From contig JAJYXM010000016.1 of the NCBI GenBank assembly GCA_021796435.1, positions 182,625 to 246,624 on the forward strand: a stretch of 64,000 bases of DNA, in the 5' to 3' direction. Made by a program: the position numbers and the translations under genes. Source of the stretch: a bacterium (lineage in GTDB: Bacteria; Patescibacteriota; Patescibacteriia; 2-12-FULL-60-25). Below the pieces are notes generated by a model. The model made no database searches. It saw only the letters and a list, made by a program, of their open reading frames with translations, and was not told where the DNA came from. Positions 2,206-56,572 of this stretch are shown here, one piece after another; within the stretch, counting starts at the first letter, position 1; every line of letters begins with the position of its first letter.

Positions 2206-5200
2206 ATGTCTTTCTTCCAATCAGAAAACATCAAAACCACGGACTTCGATGCGATCCGCCTGAAGCTGGCATCACCGGAGACCATCCGCAGTTGGTCATA
2301 CGGCGAAGTATCGAAACCAGAGACGATCAACTACCGCACCCAGAAACCAGAGAAGTCCGGTCTGTTCGCCGAAGAGATCTTCGGACCATCGAAGGACTGG
2401 GAGTGTTATTGCGGAAAATACAAGAAGATCCGATATAAAGGGATAATCTGCGACAAGTGCGGCGTGGAAGTCACGCACTCACTGGTACGCCGTGAGCGCA
2501 TGGGCCACATCGAACTGGCTGCTCCGGTTTCGCATATCTGGTTCTTGCGCAGCGTGCCGTCGAAGATCGGCACTGTGCTCGACATGTCGGTGCAGGCGCT
2601 CGAGAAGATCATCTACTTCGCCGCGTTCATCGTGACCGACGTAAACGAAGAACTGAAGACGCAGACGATCGAACAGATCCGTACCGAGTACAAAGGCAAG
2701 CGCAAATCCATCGAGTCGGAGTACGAACGCGAGGTCAAACGCATCAACGAGAACGCGGATGCCAAGAAGCTCGAACCGGCAAAAGTGACGGAGGAGCTGG
2801 ACAAGGCGCACGGCAACAAGGAACGCAAACTCAAGGAGTTGGACGGCGACTTTTCCGGCGTGGAAAAAGAGCTGAAGGACCTGAAGCCGCTCAAAGTCCT
2901 GAGCGAGAACGAATACCATGAGATGTCGCTCAAATTCGGCCACGTGTTCGAGGCCAAGATTGGAGCCGAAGCCGTCAATGAACTGTTGATGAAGATCGAC
3001 GTCGCTGCGACGATAGAGGCTTTGCAACAGGATATCGAAGGCGCTTCAGAGGTCAAACGCGATCGCATCATGCGTCGCCTCAAACTCCTGAAGTCATTCC
3101 AGCTGCAGAAGATCGAACCGCATTGGGCGATCCTGAAGGTCGTGCCGATCACGCCGCCGGACATGCGTCCGATGGTGGCGCTCGACGGCGGACGTTTCGC
3201 GACTTCCGACCTGAACGACCTGTATCGCCGCGTGATCAACCGCAACAACCGTCTCAAGCGCCTGTTGGAGCTGAATGCGCCGGAAGTCATCACGCGCAAC
3301 GAAAAGCGCATGCTGCAGGAAGCGGTCGATTCGTTGATCGACAACAGCGCACGCCATTCCAAGACGGTCTTGGCCGCGACAGGCAAGAAGCGTCAGCTCA
3401 AATCGTTGGCTGACGGCCTGAAAGGCAAACAAGGGCGTTTCCGCCAGAACTTGCTGGGTAAGCGCGTGGACTATTCCGGCCGTTCGGTCATCGTCATCGG
3501 TCCTAACCTCCGTTTGGACCAGTGCGGTCTGCCGAAGATAATGGCGTTGGAGCTCTTCAAGCCGTTCATCATCGCCGAGCTCATCAAACGCGAGATCGTG
3601 CACAACATACGTTCGGCGAACCGCTTCATCGAGGCCGATAATCCGGAAGTGTGGGACATCCTGGAGAACATCGCCACCAATTCCGTCGTGCTGCTTAACC
3701 GCGCTCCGACGTTGCATCGCTTGGGTATCCAGGGTTTCTACCCGAAACTCATCGAAGGCAAGGCTATCCAGATCCATCCGATGGTGTGTCCGGCATTCAA
3801 CGCTGACTTCGACGGAGACCAGATGGCCGTGCATCTTCCGCTGACCGAGGAGGCCAGGGAAGAGGCGCGCAACCTGATGCTTTCGACACGTAACCTGCTC
3901 AAGCCGGCTACCGGACAACCTGTGATGAAACCGGATAAAGACATCGCTTGGGGCATCTTCTACATGACGACCTTGGTCGAGCCTAAGGAAGACAAAGTAC
4001 GCGCTTTTGCCTCACCGGAAGAAGCCATCTACGTGTATAAGTTGGGCAAACTGAACATCCGCGAGAAGATCAAGACGCGCCTGGAGAACGGCGGCCCGAT
4101 CTTCGAGACGAACGTGGGACGCATCATCGTGAACAAGCTGTTCCCGGCCGAGATAGGTTTCCGTAACGAAGCGATGGGCGTCAAACAACTGGCCGAGATC
4201 ACGCGCGTCATCATGGAACGCCAAGGCTTCGAACCGGCAGCGATCTTCCTGGATAAGGTGAAGGACATGGGTTTCTACTATGTCAGCAAATCCGGCTTCT
4301 CCTATGGCATCGGCGAACTGCCTGAAGTCAAAGGCAAGCAGGCGTTGATCGACGAGGGAGACGAGAAGGTCGCGCAGATCGAAGACCAGTATAAGGAAGG
4401 TCTGTTGACCAAGAAGGAGCGCTACTCGCTGATCGTGAAGGTCTGGACCGACGTCCGCGACCGCATCCAGAAGATGTGCAGCGAATCATTGGTCGCACAG
4501 AGCTCGGTCGCTGCTATGATCCAATCCGGAGCCCGCGGTTCCGTCGGACAGCTGTCCCAGGTCATCGGCATGAAAGGCCCAGTGGCCAATCCACGCGGCG
4601 AAATCATCGAGCTGCCGATCAAGTCATCTTTCCGTGAAGGTTTGGGCGTGCTGGAATACTTCATCTCTTCCCACGGTACACGAAAAGGTCTGACTGATAC
4701 GGCCCTGAAGACGGCGAACGCCGGATACCTCACGCGCCGTCTGGTGGACGTGGCGCAGGACGTAGTCATCACGGACGAAGATTGCGGCGATACGGACGGC
4801 GTGGTCATCACGCATCAGGAATGCGAGCAGATCGGTGAGCCGTTGCTGACGCGCTTGTTGGGCCGCATCGTGATGAAGGACATCAAGGATCCGGAAACCA
4901 AGAAGGTCGTGATAAAGAAGGGCACGGTTGTCACGGAAGACGATATCAAGAAGATCAAAGCTTTCAAGGAACCGTTGCAGGAAGCGCATGTGCGCTCGGT
5001 GTTGACCTGTAAGATGCGTCGCGGACTGTGTCAGCATTGCTATGGTTTCGACTTGGCATACAGCCGCATGGTCCAGCAGGGCACGGCGGTCGGCATCATC
5101 GCCGCACAATCCATCGGCGAACCTGGAACCCAGCTGACGATGCGTACCTTCCACATGGGCGGCGTCGCCGGTGCTGACATCACGCAAGGTCTGCCACGCG

Positions 5201-8109: not shown

Positions 8110-8835
8110 ATGTCACGACACTCCAAATGGTCTAAGGTCAAGCAATTCAAAGGTGCGGTGGACGCCAAGCGCTCCGCTTCATTCACCAAACTGGCGCGGG
8201 AAATAACGGTCGCAGCGCGTGAAAAGGGCGGGGATCCGGCAATGAACGTGCGTCTGCGTGTCGCTATGGATAGGGCGCGCAAGGCTTCGATGCCGAAAGA
8301 CGCCATCGAACGTGCCGTGGTGAGAGGCACGGGCAAAGGCGGCGATGCAGCAACGATCGAAAATTTGACTTATGAGGCCTATGCACCTGGTGGGACAGCT
8401 CTGATTATCGAATGCCTGACGGATAACCGTAACCGATCGGCTAATGACGTGAAACATCTCTTATCCAAGGGCGAAGCCACTTTGGCGGCGCAAGGCTCGG
8501 TCACATACCTCTTCGACAAAAAAGGCGTAGTGCGCGTGCCGGGAGGTTTGCCTGCGGATAGGCATGAAGAGGTGGAATTGGCTTTGATCGATGCAGGAGC
8601 GGAAGACATATCGGATTACGATGAAGGTACGGAGATAAGGTGTGCACCGGTCGATTTGGCGAAAGTCGCGGATGCGGTGCAGGCAGCGGGGCTGACGGCT
8701 GATTCGGTCGAATTCGAATGGTTGCCCAAGAACCTTGTCGAGACGGATGAAGAGACGGGGGTCAAGGTATCGGATCTGATAGACAGCCTGGATGAATTGG
8801 ATGACGTAAGTCGCGTATATTCGAATCTGGCGTGA
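8110..8835 (+). CDS. yebC: YebC/PmpR family DNA-binding transcriptional regulator
   Basis: The N-terminus MSRHSKWSKVKQFKGAVDAKR... is the YebC signature and the length is about 242 aa. The ATG at 8110 is in frame within the longer TTG-started ORF. Confidence 0.9.
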   Translation: MSRHSKWSKVKQFKGAVDAKRSASFTKLAREITVAAREKGGDPAMNVRLRVAMDRARKASMPKDAIERAVVRGTGKGGDAATIENLTYEAYAPGGTALIIECLTDNRNRSANDVKHLLSKGEATLAAQGSVTYLFDKKGVVRVPGGLPADRHEEVELALIDAGAEDISDYDEGTEIRCAPVDLAKVADAVQAAGLTADSVEFEWLPKNLVETDEETGVKVSDLIDSLDELDDVSRVYSNLA

Positions 8836-8845
8836 AGATAGAAGT

Positions 8846-8863
8846 TAGAGGGTAGAGGGTAGC
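8846..8863 (+). repeat. 5' arm of an 18-bp long-range stem flanking the four-helix-bundle gene
   Basis: TAGAGGGTAGAGGGTAGC is complementary (16 Watson-Crick plus 2 G-U pairs) to GCTATCTTCTACCCTCTA at 9234-9251. Confidence 0.7.
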
Positions 8864-8882
8864 TTGGTTATGAAATTTAAAT

Positions 8883-9233
8883 ATGACAGCTGTAGGACAT
8901 AAAGGGCTGATAGTCTGGCAAAAGGCAATGGATTTGGTTGTGCTAGTTTATAGGTTAACACAAGCTTTTCCCTCATCAGAGCTGTATGGTCTGACTTCGC
9001 AGATGCGAAGGTCAGCCGTATCCATACCTAGTAATATAGCCGAAGGTCGCAAACGTGGTTCAGAAGTCGAGTTTCGTCGTTTTTTATTCATTGCCTTTGG
9101 GTCCGGTGCGGAGTTAGAGACACAGTTGGAGATTGGACAGCGCTTGGGTTTTTGTGACGCCACACTGTTTTCTCTAGCGACTGATTTGTTGAATGAGGTA
9201 ATGCGAATGTTGAACAAAATGACTTCGGAATAG
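8883..9233 (+). CDS. four-helix-bundle protein (the family encoded inside 23S rRNA intervening sequences)
   Basis: 116 aa with ...WQKAMDLVVLVYRLTQAFP..ELYGLTSQMRRSAVSIPSNIAEG..R...EFRRFL.IA.GS..ELETQL..., characteristic of the IVS-associated four-helix-bundle family. Confidence 0.85.
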   Translation: MTAVGHKGLIVWQKAMDLVVLVYRLTQAFPSSELYGLTSQMRRSAVSIPSNIAEGRKRGSEVEFRRFLFIAFGSGAELETQLEIGQRLGFCDATLFSLATDLLNEVMRMLNKMTSE

Positions 9234-9251
9234 GCTATCTTCTACCCTCTA
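9234..9251 (+). repeat. 3' arm of the 18-bp long-range stem flanking the four-helix-bundle gene
   Basis: GCTATCTTCTACCCTCTA starts immediately after the stop codon and pairs with 8846-8863. Confidence 0.7.
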
Positions 9252-9268
9252 TTTTCTACCATCTTTTT

Positions 9269-9775
9269 ATGCCCTCACTCCGCATCCTAGGCATCGATCC
9301 CGGTTTTGACCGGATGGGTTTCGGGGTAGTCGATCATGTAGGATCCAAGATGCTATGCATGGGGCATGGTTGCATCCAGACCAGCCCAAACGATGAGTTC
9401 GCTTTGCGGCTGCAGCAGTTGCGTGATGGTTTGCGCCAGATAATCTCTGAACATAAGCCGTCATGCGTGGCGATCGAGCAGCTTTTTTTCCAGACTAACG
9501 CCAAGACGGCCATCAAGGTGGGCATGGCGCGCGGGGTCATCGTCTTGGCTGCGGCGGATGCCGGTTTGCCGATCGTGGATGTGACTCCGGCTCAGGTGAA
9601 GTTAGGTTTGACCGGCTGGGGCGGTTCCGACAAGAAGCAGATCCAACAGATGGTGCAGCGGGTATTATCATTGCAGGAAATCCCGAAGCCGGACGATGCG
9701 GCTGACGCCTTGGCGATGGCGATTGTCGGTGGGTCGCTTTTCAAGCATACTAAGGCTTGTGCTTCAGGACAGTAA
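9269..9775 (+). CDS. ruvC: crossover junction endodeoxyribonuclease RuvC
   Basis: N-terminus ...ILGIDPGFDRMGFGVVD... matches RuvC. Length is 168 aa. Confidence 0.9.
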   Translation: MPSLRILGIDPGFDRMGFGVVDHVGSKMLCMGHGCIQTSPNDEFALRLQQLRDGLRQIISEHKPSCVAIEQLFFQTNAKTAIKVGMARGVIVLAAADAGLPIVDVTPAQVKLGLTGWGGSDKKQIQQMVQRVLSLQEIPKPDDAADALAMAIVGGSLFKHTKACASGQ

Positions 9776-14799: not shown

Positions 14800-16314
14800 A
14801 TGTCCGAGCAAGCGATCAGCAGATTTTCACGCCGGACCATGGTCGGAGCCGCCTTTATAGGCGGCTTTGCCGTAATGAGCTTGGAGTTATTGGAGGCACG
14901 GCTGGCTGCACCTTATTTCGGGTCTTCCGTGTTGGTCTGGACGAACATAATAGGCGTAATCTTGGCTGCCTTGGCTCTTGGTGCGTGGCTGGGCGGAGTT
15001 GCGGTGGACAGACGTCCTGATGGCCGATGGGCCTCGGCAGCTTTGTTCGGGGCGGGGGTGTGGGCCTTGGGTATGTCGGCTTTAGGCCGGGGAGCTCTAC
15101 TCCTGTTCACCTCGTTGCCGCAGCAGATAGCGACTCCGGCAGCCTCTCTGCTTTTGTTCGCGCCCCCGTCTTTCCTGTTGGGTGCAGTGCCGCCGGTATT
15201 GTGGCGTCTCTTGGTGAGGGATGTGGAGCGGAGCGGACATGAGGCTGGTCTGCTTTCGGCAGCAGGGACGGTCGGGAGTCTGGTAGGCACCTATCTTACA
15301 GGTTATGTGTTGTTGCCCAGATTCGGAGTGGAATCCTTGCTCATCATGCTTTCAGGTCTACTCATCATATACGCGCTTGTGTTGACGGAGAGGGCGAAGA
15401 CCATACCGATTTTGGGTTCGTGTTTTTCCATCGTGGCTTTGGGCTCGATACTGAACAACGTCAACGCGCAGGCTACGCCGGGTAAATTCTATCCGTCCGC
15501 CTATTCGCATCTTGCGGTCATCCAAATGCCTTGGCAGGGCAAGGAATCAGACCTGCTTTTCATCAATACGGGTCTGCATTCAGGTGCGACGATAGATGAT
15601 CCGAAACATAGCGTTTTTTCCTATGTCAAAGCGGCACAGGCGGTAGAAGAACTGGTCCCAGACCCGAAGAATCTTTTATTGGTCGGCGGTGGCGGAATGC
15701 ACATCGCTCATGGATTCCTGGAGCGGCATCCGGGGGCTACGGCAGACGTGATAGAGATCGACCCGGCCGTTTATGAGGCTGCCCGAGAGACCTATGGGAC
15801 GGGTGATGAGGCTGGTCTTAAGATGCACTTCGGTGACGCGAGGACTGTGGTGAGGGAGCTCGAAGGGAAATATGATGCGATCGTAGTGGATGCGTATGGC
15901 GCTGACGTAAGTGTGCCGTGGCATCTGCTGACGCGCGAGGCTTTACAGGACCTGTACTCGAGATTATCGGACAAGGGGGTCTTGGTGGCGAATATCATCA
16001 TGGCGACGGATCCTCGTCTACAGGACCTGACGTTCAGTCGACGTAGCCTGGCGACGATGAGTGTCGTATTCGACTGGGTTCTGCCTATATCCATGGGTAA
16101 TGTGACGGATGGCAAAGGAGGCATCGCGAACGTGTTGGTCTTCGCCGGTCATGGCGTAAAACCGGACGAAGAACCTTTGGTCCGCAGCATACGAGAGAGA
16201 TATGGCGTGCCCCTCGCACGGGCTTTCGTCTTGGATACGGATAATGCCTTGGTCTATACGGATGATTTCGGACCAGGGGATTATGACAGCGCGGATATGT
16301 ATCTGCAGAAATAA
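14800..16314 (+). CDS. fused membrane domain / spermidine synthase-like aminopropyltransferase
   Basis: N-terminal multi-TM domain plus a C-terminal SpeE-like fold (LLVGGGGMHIAHGF..., DVIEIDPAVYEAARETYG, VVDAYG). Confidence 0.75.
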   Translation: MSEQAISRFSRRTMVGAAFIGGFAVMSLELLEARLAAPYFGSSVLVWTNIIGVILAALALGAWLGGVAVDRRPDGRWASAALFGAGVWALGMSALGRGALLLFTSLPQQIATPAASLLLFAPPSFLLGAVPPVLWRLLVRDVERSGHEAGLLSAAGTVGSLVGTYLTGYVLLPRFGVESLLIMLSGLLIIYALVLTERAKTIPILGSCFSIVALGSILNNVNAQATPGKFYPSAYSHLAVIQMPWQGKESDLLFINTGLHSGATIDDPKHSVFSYVKAAQAVEELVPDPKNLLLVGGGGMHIAHGFLERHPGATADVIEIDPAVYEAARETYGTGDEAGLKMHFGDARTVVRELEGKYDAIVVDAYGADVSVPWHLLTREALQDLYSRLSDKGVLVANIIMATDPRLQDLTFSRRSLATMSVVFDWVLPISMGNVTDGKGGIANVLVFAGHGVKPDEEPLVRSIRERYGVPLARAFVLDTDNALVYTDDFGPGDYDSADMYLQK

Positions 16315-38151: not shown

Positions 38152-38180
38152 TTGACAATCGTCGGGATGTGCATTATAGT
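38152..38180 (+). promoter_or_regulatory. nusA promoter
   Basis: TTGACA, 17 nt, TATAGT, about 120 nt upstream of nusA. Confidence 0.6.
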
Positions 38181-38188
38181 ATCCGCAT

Positions 38189-38217: not shown

Positions 38218-38297
38218 AACTAGGCGGTAGACAGTAGGGCGTAGGCGGTAGCGAAAGGGCTATAACCTATCACCTATGGACTACATCCTCTCAAATT

Positions 38298-39746
38298 ATG
38301 GCTTCACCAATCTCACAAGCGATACGTCAGGTGTGCGACGAGAAGAACCTGACCTACGAATCGGTACTCGAAACCGTCGAATCAGCTTTGGCTGCTGCAT
38401 TCCGCAAGGATTTCGGCAACAAAAACCAGAACATAAAGGTAGAATTCGACCCCGAAACATACGATGGCGGTACCATGGGTATCCGCGTTTTCGACGTGAA
38501 GACGGTAGTACCGGACATGGAACTCCCAGACGATTATTTCGAACGTTTCGAGGAAGCGCATGCTTTGAAGAAGCAGGAAGGGAAGCCGGGGACCCAACCA
38601 GAGGTGCGACGCCCACTGCCGGAAGCGATGGAGCAGAAGCCTGCTGCGGAAACGGCCGAAGGCGAGGAGGATGAATTCAAATTCAACCAGAAGACCATGA
38701 TCATGCTGTCTGACGCGCGGGACCTCAAGCCCGATGCGCAGGAAGGTGATGAGATTAGGGTCGAGTTGACCGTGCCAGCGGCTTTCGGTCGTATGGCGGC
38801 ACAGACAGCCAAACAGGTCATCATGCAGAAGCTGCGCGAAGCGGAACGGACAGTCATCTATACGGATTTCAAAGATCGCGAGGGTGAACTGATGAACGTG
38901 ACGATCCAGCGTCGCGAAGGTAGGCTCGTGCTGATCGATTTGGGTCGCGCTACGGGCGTGTTGTTGCCTGAAGACCAGATAGAGAATGAACGCTATTTCG
39001 CCGGTAACCGCATCAAGGCGATACTGCGCGAGGTGGCCATGACGCCACGAGGACCGGAGATCCGTCTGTCCCGTTCGAGCCCTGGTTTGGTGGCCGCCAT
39101 CTTCGCCCAAGAGATCCCGGAAGTAGCGAACGGCACTGTCGAAATAAAGAATATCGCTCGTGAAGCCGGTTCGCGCACCAAAGTCGCCGTCACGGCGCAT
39201 GATGATGCCATCGATCCCATCGGTTCCTGTATCGGACAACGCGGAACACGCGTGCAGACCATCATACGCGAACTGGGCGGCGAGAAGATCGACGTAATAC
39301 CGTGGTCGGAAGACGAAGCCGAATATATCGCAGCTTCGCTGCAACCGGCGAAAGCCATCAAGGTGGACCTCAACCGCAACGAGCATCTGGCTATCGTGCG
39401 CGTACCGTCCGACCAGTTGTCTTTGGCTATCGGCAAAGGCGGGCAGAATGTCCGTCTGGCGGCTAAGCTGACCAACTGGAAGATCAATATCGCGGAGGAG
39501 AGCGGTAAGATGGTGGCTGATTCCGAGGTCGGAGAATTCGGAGGTGAAACGAAGAAGCCAGTAGCGGAAGAGCCGGTAGCAGGACAGACCGCGAGTGTCG
39601 AAGAGGCGCCGGAGACCGTACAAGAAGCGGAGAGCAAGAACGAAAAAGCCGAAGCCGCGCAGCAACCCATCGAAGGCACGCAAATAAGCGACGAACAACA
39701 GACCGTAGAAGCGCCGGCTGCGGACGTCGAGAAGTCCGAGGAATAA
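38298..39746 (+). CDS. nusA: transcription termination/antitermination factor NusA
   Basis: 482 aa with NusA N-terminal, S1 and KH regions (e.g. ...GSCIGQRGTRVQTIIRELGGEKIDVI.WSED..., ...AIGKGGQNVRLAAKLTNWKINI) and an acidic C-terminal tail. Confidence 0.9.
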   Translation: MASPISQAIRQVCDEKNLTYESVLETVESALAAAFRKDFGNKNQNIKVEFDPETYDGGTMGIRVFDVKTVVPDMELPDDYFERFEEAHALKKQEGKPGTQPEVRRPLPEAMEQKPAAETAEGEEDEFKFNQKTMIMLSDARDLKPDAQEGDEIRVELTVPAAFGRMAAQTAKQVIMQKLREAERTVIYTDFKDREGELMNVTIQRREGRLVLIDLGRATGVLLPEDQIENERYFAGNRIKAILREVAMTPRGPEIRLSRSSPGLVAAIFAQEIPEVANGTVEIKNIAREAGSRTKVAVTAHDDAIDPIGSCIGQRGTRVQTIIRELGGEKIDVIPWSEDEAEYIAASLQPAKAIKVDLNRNEHLAIVRVPSDQLSLAIGKGGQNVRLAAKLTNWKINIAEESGKMVADSEVGEFGGETKKPVAEEPVAGQTASVEEAPETVQEAESKNEKAEAAQQPIEGTQISDEQQTVEAPAADVEKSEE

Positions 39747-48343: not shown

Positions 48344-49200
48344 GTCCGACGGAGATAAAGCAGATATTGGCGAGCTTGGGTGCGCGACCGAACAAAGGGT
48401 TGGGGCAGAATTTTTTGATCGATCAGAAGACGCTGGAGATTATCGTCGAGACGGCTGCCGTAAAGCCGGGTGATCTGGTTTTGGAGGTCGGTCCTGGTCT
48501 AGGTGTTTTGACGCGGGAACTTATGGACAAGGGAGCAGATGTCGTAGCGATAGAGCGGGATAGGCGGTTTGTCGATTATCTAAAGAGGGAGGTAGGGGCG
48601 AATAATCATTCGCCCGTACGAATCGTTCATGGTGATGCGGCGGATGTGCATTGGCACGAGCTGATCGGTGAGGGGACGTGGAAATTCGTGTCCAATCTGC
48701 CGTATTCGATGACTTCGTTCGCTTTGCGTAAAGCTTTGTGGGCGCCTAAGCCTCCGGAGAACCTTGTGGTGTTGGTACAGCGGGAAGTGGGGGAAAGGGC
48801 TACGGAAACAGCGGGTCGAACCGCGTACCGCGTACCGCGTTCCGGAAAGACCTCGCTGCTTTCTTTGATGGTGGCGTTGTCATCTGAATCCTCCCGAATA
48901 GTACGGCGTGTGCCGGCTGGGTGTTTTTTTCCGCCGCCGAAAGTCGAATCAGTCGTCTTGCAGATAGTGCCGATGCCGTGGGCGGAGAGGGAAAAGAAGT
49001 GGGGAATCAGTCCGGAAAAAATCATGGAAGTCGCGAAAAGAGGTTTTGCTCATCCGCGTAAACTTTTGAAATCGAATCTGGCCCAAGAAGGGGTGGATGT
49101 CGAATCGTCTTTGCGTGATTTAGGGATAAATGAGAAAGCGCGGGCAGAAGACCTGTCCCCGGAGGATTGGGCAAGTTTGACACAGGCAATATCTGTTTAA
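48340..49200 (+). CDS. rsmA: 16S rRNA (adenine1518/1519-N6)-dimethyltransferase
   Basis: LGQNFLID, SAM motif LEVGPGLG and C-terminal PPPKVES. Overlaps tsaC by 4 nt. Confidence 0.9.
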   Translation: MSPTEIKQILASLGARPNKGLGQNFLIDQKTLEIIVETAAVKPGDLVLEVGPGLGVLTRELMDKGADVVAIERDRRFVDYLKREVGANNHSPVRIVHGDAADVHWHELIGEGTWKFVSNLPYSMTSFALRKALWAPKPPENLVVLVQREVGERATETAGRTAYRVPRSGKTSLLSLMVALSSESSRIVRRVPAGCFFPPPKVESVVLQIVPMPWAEREKKWGISPEKIMEVAKRGFAHPRKLLKSNLAQEGVDVESSLRDLGINEKARAEDLSPEDWASLTQAISV

Positions 49201-51596: not shown

Positions 51597-53104
<1,508 letters not shown>

Positions 53105-56461: not shown

Positions 56462-56528
56462 ATAACAAAACATCCTCTTGCGAGGATGTTTTGCATGGTG
56501 GACGGCAGAGGAGTCGAACCTCTGACCT
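56462..56528. repeat. direct repeat copy B (hairpin plus tRNA-Val 3' portion)
   Basis: See copy A. This copy continues into the intact tRNA-Val. Confidence 0.75.
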
Positions 56529-56572
56529 TCACAATGTCAATGTGACGCTCTAACCAACTGAGCTAGCCGTCC
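56496..56572 (-). tRNA. tRNA-Val (anticodon GAC), CCA-encoded
   Basis: The minus strand reads GGACGGCTAGCTCAGTTGGTTAGAGCGTCACATTGACATTGTGAAGGTCAGAGGTTCGACTCCTCTGCCGTCCACCA. Cloverleaf has a 7-bp acceptor, D-arm, anticodon loop TTGACAT and T-loop TTCGACT. Confidence 0.85.

Follow-up and report, generated by a model that had tools for sequence, protein, structure and literature searches.

What occupies the junction between yebC and ruvC in the Patescibacteria genome that supplied this 64,000-nucleotide stretch of DNA (the window), and how is it accommodated between genes that are normally directly adjacent? The gap from the yebC stop codon (8833-8835) to the ruvC start codon (9269) measures 433 nt (8836-9268), and it is filled entirely by a cassette built around a gene for a four-helix-bundle (4HB) protein. 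An earlier, sequence-only reading had likened this gene to the open reading frames (ORFs) of ribosomal RNA (rRNA) intervening sequences (IVSs), and had described it as a cassette inserted between yebC and ruvC and bracketed by an 18-bp stem. The analysis presented here indicates that the cassette is probably a self-contained element of the IVS type, in which an intact PF05635 gene without a promoter of its own lies between two inverted arrays of approximately 3.5 phased heptamers each.

The two arrays mirror one another. The left arm (8836-8866, plus strand) is composed of TAGAAGT (8839), TAGAGGG (8846), TAGAGGG (8853) and TAGC (8860), and the right arm (9234-9268), whose final base abuts the ruvC ATG, is composed of GCTA, TCTTCTA, CCCTCTA, TTTTCTA and CCATCTTTTT. 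Tandem Repeats Finder assigns a period of 7 to both, and the consensus unit is TAGRRRR on the left and its complement, YYYYCTA, on the right. Since 7 cannot be divided by 3, each arm stops all three frames of the strand that reads into the element: the left arm carries stop codons in three of three reading frames, and the right arm carries TAG in three of three frames of the minus strand. Between the arms are a spacer with no clear Shine-Dalgarno sequence (8867-8882) and the 4HB gene itself (8883-9233), which encodes 116 amino acids. No promoter or terminator was predicted on the plus strand inside the cassette. An upstream ORF of 10 codons (8870-8902; MKFKYDSCRT) starts 10 nt past GAGGG in the left arm and runs, in another frame, into the start of the 4HB gene; its presence is probably due to chance.

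The arms are predicted to form a long-range stem. The reverse complement of 9234-9251 (GCTATCTTCTACCCTCTA) departs from 8846-8863 (TAGAGGGTAGAGGGTAGC) at two positions, each G versus A, and the proposed 18-bp duplex of 16 Watson-Crick and two G·U pairs is thus present exactly as had been claimed. A repeat search extends the inverted repeat to 30 nt with 80% complementarity (8834-8863 with 9234-9263). When 450 nt (8826-9275) were folded with RNAfold, the minimum-energy and centroid structures alike paired 8829-8866 with 9232-9272, with a z-score of -4.0 and none of 100 shuffled sequences folding equally well; the same stem was kept in both structures of a 981-nt fold (8560-9540), such that the arms remain paired in the longer transcript. 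The stem encloses the 4HB gene only. Its base contains the yebC TGA and, in both folds, the ruvC start codon, which is paired so as to face the yebC stop region.

Chance can be excluded as the source of this arrangement on two grounds. The pattern TAGN4TAGN4TAG occurs 10 times in the window, compared with 0.04 expected occurrences, and nine of the 10 fall inside either the cassette or a second element at 38221-38287; furthermore, the arm-to-arm alignment score of the cassette, 39, exceeds the 99th percentile of controls with mismatched partners (35). Mirrored pairs of arrays with at least three phased units of 7-8 nt at a gene junction occur at 8839-8863/9234-9258 and at 38221-38287. The remaining TAGN4TAGN4TAG match, at 51839, is inside the 16S rRNA gene and was treated as unrelated. 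A heptamer run at 48815-48846, which falls within a coding ORF, was likewise considered and found to be unrelated to the cassette.

The protein encoded between the arms is readily classified. It matches PF05635 over profile positions 2-106 of 106 (E = 2.7e-37; 127.6 bits against a cut-off of 33.8) and the 23S_rRNA_IVP model TIGR02436 with 121.9 bits against a cut-off of 24, and it also matches chain A of PDB entry 2GSC, the pentameric XCC0516 protein of Xanthomonas (E = 2.9e-26). The identification of an IVS-type ORF of the S23p/XCC0516 family between yebC and ruvC is therefore well founded. The RxxxSxxxNxxEG motif described for the family (PMC3936711) is found in the window protein as RRSAVSIPSNIAEG. 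Values of dN/dS from 0.05 to 0.2 indicate strong purifying selection in the family; to judge from this codon-level measure, the 4HB protein is functional. Proteins of this kind are small helical bundles that assemble as toroids, and the function of the ORFs in rRNA IVSs has been a puzzle since 1993. No catalytic motif is known in PF05635, nor any enzymatic activity of a 4HB protein. In base composition the gene stands apart from its surroundings: its GC content is 45.0%, and its GC content at third codon positions (GC3) is 43.6%, 15-24 points under the 59% and 68% of the flanking genes. A homologue discussed below (locus L164) has a GC3 of 39%, and in 45 of 50 loci the GC content of the 4HB ORF was below that of the rest of its own locus.

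The pentameric 4HB fold is shared with Avd, a homologue of PF05635 proteins that binds nucleic acid and a reverse transcriptase (PMC10053308), which raises the question as to whether the gene could belong to a diversity-generating retroelement as its accessory gene avd. Weak similarity to the Avd profiles is indeed detectable, although the scores remain well under their cut-offs, at 19.2 bits against 40 for bAvd (PF22296) and 19.7 against 80 for NF033474. None of the called genes in the ~6.4-kb span around the 4HB gene has a reverse-transcriptase domain, template/variable repeats are likewise missing from its vicinity, and a phmmer search of all six-frame ORFs revealed no second 4HB gene elsewhere in the window. 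On the strength of the sub-cut-off scores and the missing reverse-transcriptase neighbour, this identity was rejected, and the probability left to it is close to nil.

Is the layout of the cassette peculiar to this locus? The family was sampled with 80 metagenomic loci, their genes called by a crude ORF finder, that encode homologues 47-67% identical to the window protein. When 80 nt were taken on each side of the 4HB gene, a tandem period of 7 or 8 scored best in 67 of the 78 flanks upstream and 62 of the 77 downstream, compared with 38 of 261 control segments. At least three exact 7-mers were common to the upstream flank and the reverse-complemented downstream flank in 59% of cassettes, as opposed to 5.8% of mismatched partners, and the alignments of the arms, whose register is ambiguous owing to the tandem repeats, scored above the 95th percentile of the controls in 46 of 70 cassettes. 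The heptamer itself varies from locus to locus (TAGGGAC, TAGTGGT, GTTGTCA, TTCACAG and others) with the mirror arrangement retained; arm sequence is different between genomes and common within one genome. An array typically holds 3-5 units, and the downstream one usually runs from the 4HB stop codon up to the next ATG, flush with it; the 4HB stop codon and the start codon that follows are a median of 35 nt apart. Stops in all three frames were present on the sense strand of 59% of the flanks upstream and on the antisense strand of 45% of those downstream, versus 21% of shuffled flanks. Between co-directional neighbours, 35 cassettes were in the sense orientation and five in the antisense orientation (p = 1.4e-6). 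In four cases (L126, L134, L140 and the first copy in L124), the 4HB genes have direct, same-strand arrays on both sides or form tandem pairs, and adjacent cassettes may share arrays there.

None of the 20 homologue loci tested for rRNA contained any, and a search for 23S motifs gave two weak matches only. In the window, Rfam models detect only the 16S rRNA gene (51598-53103) and one tRNA over the whole length, with the cassette lying outside the former and covered by no known RNA family. In its parts the element matches an ORF-containing rRNA IVS, but it is not located in an rRNA gene, the feature by which IVSs are defined; it would thus act in the manner of an IVS while falling outside that class. 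Known IVSs occupy helix 25 or 45 of 23S rRNA and, in bacteria of the Candidate Phyla Radiation, which is equivalent to Patescibacteria, also 16S rRNA; 23S_rRNA_IVP ORFs are found in rRNA insertions of these bacteria (PMC11270868). Here, the host site is a protein-coding operon.

The closest published counterpart is the helix-45 23S IVS of Coxiella burnetii, a 428-nt element with an S23p ORF and an inverted-repeat stem that is cut by RNase III; three or four tandem GACAGAT heptamers directly precede its ORF, its Shine-Dalgarno sequence is poor, and it is sporadic and considered a horizontal acquisition (PMC4990558). The correspondence with the 433-nt cassette is close, as both carry a PF05635 ORF in the loop of an inverted-repeat stem, tandem heptamers 5' of that ORF and a poor Shine-Dalgarno sequence, and both occur sporadically. 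Apart from the host site, there are two differences. The Coxiella ORF is decaying and probably untranslated, whereas that of the window is intact and under purifying selection; and cleavage has been demonstrated in Coxiella, whereas for the cassette it would be expected by analogy.

In order to place the cassette among related genomes, the junction was compared in a RuvC-anchored scan of species-representative genomes, in which the window falls in Patescibacteria near Uhrbacteria. Spacing between yebC and ruvC in related Patescibacteria ranges from overlap to ~70 nt. In the closest relative (L002; YebC 94% and RuvC 88% identical) the junction reads TAA-ctgcgg-ATG, a spacer of 6 nt without a cassette. 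The two genes overlap, again without a cassette, in L007 and L013, and the junction is also empty in several more distant relatives. Conversely, the best 4HB homologue in a collection of 5.8 billion proteins (P0002, 70% identical) is encoded at the yebC-ruvC junction of L164, and L105 has the same yebC-4HB-ruvC order with a 4HB protein 55% identical to that of the window. The distribution is therefore sporadic, and uniform occupancy of the junction by a gene lacking flanking complementarity is not what the relatives display.

This comparison also bears on a more conventional explanation, namely that the stem is a native regulatory module of the operon, coupling ruvC translation to completion of yebC or setting mRNA stability, and that the 4HB gene is an ordinary host gene. 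The pairing of the yebC stop region with the ruvC AUG would suit such a module, as would the purifying selection on the protein and the absence of an obvious Shine-Dalgarno sequence before ruvC, both in the window and at the empty site. A native module, however, should not be missing from the closest relative and most of the clade, nor should its ORF have a GC3 so far below that of its neighbours. In addition, the same layout recurs between unrelated gene pairs, including liv permease genes, ABC ATPase genes and accB/accC, and IVP ORFs have been reported from cas operons, where one of them separates cmr3 from cmr2 (PMC3936711). A native module is thus improbable, and the self-contained element remains the preferred explanation.

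Whether the element arrived recently at this junction is a separate matter. The empty L002 site at first suggested a recent insertion, but this reading is weakened by the L164 homologue at the same junction and by arrays without an ORF at the junctions of other relatives: L163 has a heptamer hairpin, L061 has inverted heptamer arrays and L060 has a solo array. L164 is more distant from the window than L002 by host relationship, and a neighbour-joining tree of RuvC plus YebC joins the window to the empty L002 as its sister and puts L164 in another subclade. Common descent of the window and L164 cassettes is favored by their top-hit relationship and by their alignable arms, in which the TAGAGGG/CCCTCTA unit of the window is replaced by TAGACGG/CCGTCTA, a compensated change; both cassettes also have TAGCTTG(G/T)TT at the end of the left arm (8860-8869 in the window). 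The low GC3 of the ORF, on the other hand, argues against a long undisturbed residence at the junction. Either an old cassette has been lost several times or related cassettes have entered the junction repeatedly; the L164 homologue, the host tree and the ORF-less hairpins of the relatives are compatible with gain as well as with loss. Of the earlier proposal that the cassette was inserted and is not native intergenic sequence, the second part is upheld by the empty junctions, the low GC3 and the lack of a promoter, and the first, that of direction, is one of two readings that L164 and the host tree allow.

Three other junctions in the scan had unusual contents. In L005, the yebC-ruvC spacer contains a strong hairpin with GTAGGGGCG arms (3929-3985; -41 kcal/mol, z-score -3.9), and in L012 a strong hairpin fills the spacer; both may be decayed remnants of a cassette. 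The 595-nt filling of the L009 junction (1466-2062) was examined as a possible related cassette and dismissed, being an unrelated reverse-strand ORF of 175 amino acids with no Pfam match. The YebC of L009 lacks ~60 internal residues.

Hairpins without an ORF are not confined to the yebC-ruvC junction. The second element of the window (38221-38287, plus strand) reads TAGGCGG TAGACAG TAGGGCG TAGGCGG TAGC, a loop gaaagg, and then GCTATAAC CTATCAC CTATGGA CTACATC; it is a mirror TAGNNNN array of 4-5 units per side with the same inner TAGC...GCTA and the same TAG phasing as the cassette, located in the leader of nusA (38298-39746). By eye, a promoter-like sequence (TTGACA, 17 nt, TATAGT) can be discerned upstream of it at ~38152-38182. 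A richer case is the single contig represented by L162 and L163, on which four heptamer elements lie within 6 kb. Two are 4HB cassettes, with proteins 78% identical, in a liv-type ABC transporter operon, where one separates a pair of permease genes and the other a pair of ATPase genes; the remaining two, hairpins that lack an ORF, occupy the ABC_tran|yebC and yebC|ruvC junctions (15041-15125 and 15679-15760 of L163, present also in L162). All four elements have TAGG-type heptamers (consensus TAGGNNG, e.g. TAGGATG). In the database gene calls for L163, yebC starts too late and ruvC too early, as the arrays have been taken as coding sequence.

The relationship between the two L162/L163 cassettes is informative as to how the arms are maintained. 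Their upstream arms are identical at 42 of 42 positions, yet the synonymous sites of the genes that they flank are nearly saturated (pS 0.74), and hence the arms must be either homogenized or tightly constrained within the genome. On a broader scale, heptamer arrays away from a 4HB gene are approximately five times denser in 4HB loci than in RuvC-anchored loci. Such distant arrays have 7-mers in common with the cassette in the same locus in 55% of cases, compared with a background of 27%, a roughly two-fold difference from other cassettes that lends weak support to genome-specific units.

Together, these observations allow a mechanism to be proposed. The cassette would be transcribed by read-through within the yebC-ruvC message, and in that RNA the arrays would pair as a duplex of at least 30 bp, looping out the 4HB ORF and bringing the yebC stop beside the ruvC start. 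RNase III would then cut the duplex and free the element from the operon transcript, as it does for the IVSs of Coxiella and Leptospira; cleavage, along with the stops in all frames on both sides, would make an insertion between tightly coupled genes tolerable. At the level of DNA, heptamer-array hairpins would constitute a family that takes up residence at gene junctions, with the cassette as its form with an ORF; the similarity of the genome-specific units would be maintained through gene conversion, probably, or template switching, and not through selection on individual RNA base pairs. A role for transcription is indicated by the sense bias of the homologues, the lack of an internal promoter, the robust stem and the cleavage of the Coxiella IVS.

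Several results weigh against this proposal, most of them concerning its RNA-level part. Three of its steps, namely co-transcription, stem formation in vivo and cleavage by RNase III, are drawn from analogy, and an RNase III signature was not found in the window. Transition mismatches between the arms, scored on the sense strand, comprise 68 G·U and 72 A·C (sign test, p = 1), a parity that makes the complementarity of the arms look DNA-driven and gives no sign of selection on individual RNA base pairs; covariation was accordingly dropped as a proof of RNA structure. In Xanthomonas, the arms have a transversion mismatch at every seventh base, and in the element at 38221-38287 only the TAG/CTA cores pair and the fold is not significant (z-score -1.4). 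These three findings point away from RNA pairing as the property maintained by selection. The ambiguity of gain and loss at the junction also tells against an inserted element, and no enzyme for its mobility was identified. Finally, with respect to transposons with terminal inverted repeats and miniature inverted-repeat transposable elements, inverted arms are present, no target-site duplication was seen between the filled window site and the empty L002 site, and the arm sequence differs from genome to genome and is shared within one.

These results raise the possibility that the element acts at the DNA level and that the RNA stem is incidental, with the arrays serving as sites at which single- or double-stranded DNA is bound or recombined, so that the hairpins are spread and maintained, and the 4HB protein acting on them in trans. 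The precedent would be the REPIN/RAYT system, in which repetitive extragenic palindromic (REP) sequences and REPINs form dispersed intergenic hairpins and a single gene for a REP-associated tyrosine transposase (RAYT) is flanked by inverted repeats of its own, the repeat sequences being specific to each genome. Of the known systems, it is the most similar in genome-wide behavior, although its protein and repeats are unrelated to those described here: the arrays are tandem 7-mers and not single palindromes, and the protein is a helical bundle and not one of the IS200/IS605-type Y1 transposases, to which RAYTs belong and whose catalytic mechanism is known. The missing G·U bias, the periodic Xanthomonas transversions and the core-only pairing at 38221-38287 all suit such an account, as do the paralogous cassettes whose arms are identical despite saturated synonymous sites and the recurrence of genome-specific units in ORF-less hairpins. 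Conversely, PF05635 proteins have no known catalytic motif, a target-site duplication was not seen, the strong bias toward the sense orientation indicates a role for transcription, and the equivalent Coxiella stem is demonstrably cut by RNase III (PMC4990558). As a full explanation it is possible but, in our estimation, unlikely to displace the IVS-type element; the two are nonetheless compatible. Our reading is that DNA-level processes, or recognition of the units, generate the mirror arrays and keep them similar. The read-through duplex and its likely cleavage by RNase III would follow from this, by analogy with Coxiella, and would allow the element to be tolerated within rRNA and within operons.

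The DNA-level account also gains from Xanthomonas, for which 186 intergenic arrays of the GGGAATC type have been described in X. campestris, about 70 (70-75) of them in convergent (inverted) pairs, and interpreted as G-quadruplex motifs (PMC4692102). In L165/L166 (2424-2872), from Xanthomonas campestris, a homologue 92% identical to the crystallized XCC0516 lies between accB and accC and carries that very unit, the order being accB, GGGAATC GGGAGTG GAGAATC GGGAATC, 4HB, CCCATTC CCCATTC TCGACTC CCTATTC, accC. Similarly, TAACTGA heptamer repeats are known from Beggiatoaceae, cyanobacteria and Bacteroidetes (PMC4679880), and L148 bears TGATAAC units, which are equivalent to TAACTGA. Like the GGGAATC and TAACTGA repeats and the short tandemly repeated repetitive (STRR) sequences of cyanobacteria, the arrays of the cassettes consist of phased 7-nt units, usually in 2-6 copies, between co-oriented genes, and are often flush with start codons. 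Unlike the published repeats, they form a mirror pair around a gene; the two papers regard the repeats as G-quadruplexes or signals for translation, and neither connects them with PF05635 genes (PMC4692102, PMC4679880). Within the open-access full text searched, no connection between PF05635 genes and flanking inverted heptamer arrays was found other than the description of the Coxiella IVS. The more novel claim is that 4HB genes and phased-heptamer hairpins are generally linked, and it is based on ~70 metagenomic loci together with a single locus from Xanthomonas and a single published IVS. As the layout recurs around relatives of the gene in three distant groups of bacteria, the data suggest one widespread family of selfish hairpin elements.

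A bolder extension is that PF05635 proteins and phased-heptamer inverted arrays are the two halves of one widespread system, as RAYTs and REPINs are, with each subunit of the pentameric toroid binding one heptamer in a run of approximately 4-5, in the way that phased (G/U)AG triplets are bound by TRAP. This idea is speculative, and we consider it fairly unlikely. Were it correct, binding by the toroid may maintain or spread the genome-specific hairpins at gene junctions, and ORF-containing rRNA IVSs, Xanthomonas GGGAATC, TAACTGA and cyanobacterial STRR repeats may all be forms of one element. A more speculative variant still has the arrays made by reiterative, template-directed synthesis, since the mirror geometry is that of the same repeat added to both 3' ends of a double-strand break.

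Three puzzles, namely the function of the rRNA-IVS ORF, the excess of intergenic heptamers in several phyla and the scattering of 4HB genes, appear to be a single phenomenon. Annotations reading "four helix bundle protein" number in the thousands and are scattered inside operons, cas operons included. If the interpretation is true, the 4HB genes of operons are cassette insertions and not functional partners of their neighbors, and the heptamer arrays acquire a candidate protein partner. For annotation, it explains miscalled start codons and odd spacers at the otherwise tight gene junctions of Patescibacteria.

The two host genes flanking the cassette are themselves unambiguous. Upstream lies yebC (8110-8835, plus strand), a member of the TACO1/YebC family with matches to PF20772 and PF01709, and downstream lies ruvC (9269-9775, plus strand), with a match to PF02075. 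With regard to rRNA, the 16S gene of the window is complete and is followed by 10.9 kb without a 23S gene; the only RNA gene near it is a tRNA-Val on the opposite strand (56496-56572), and the rRNA genes appear to be unlinked in the source genome.

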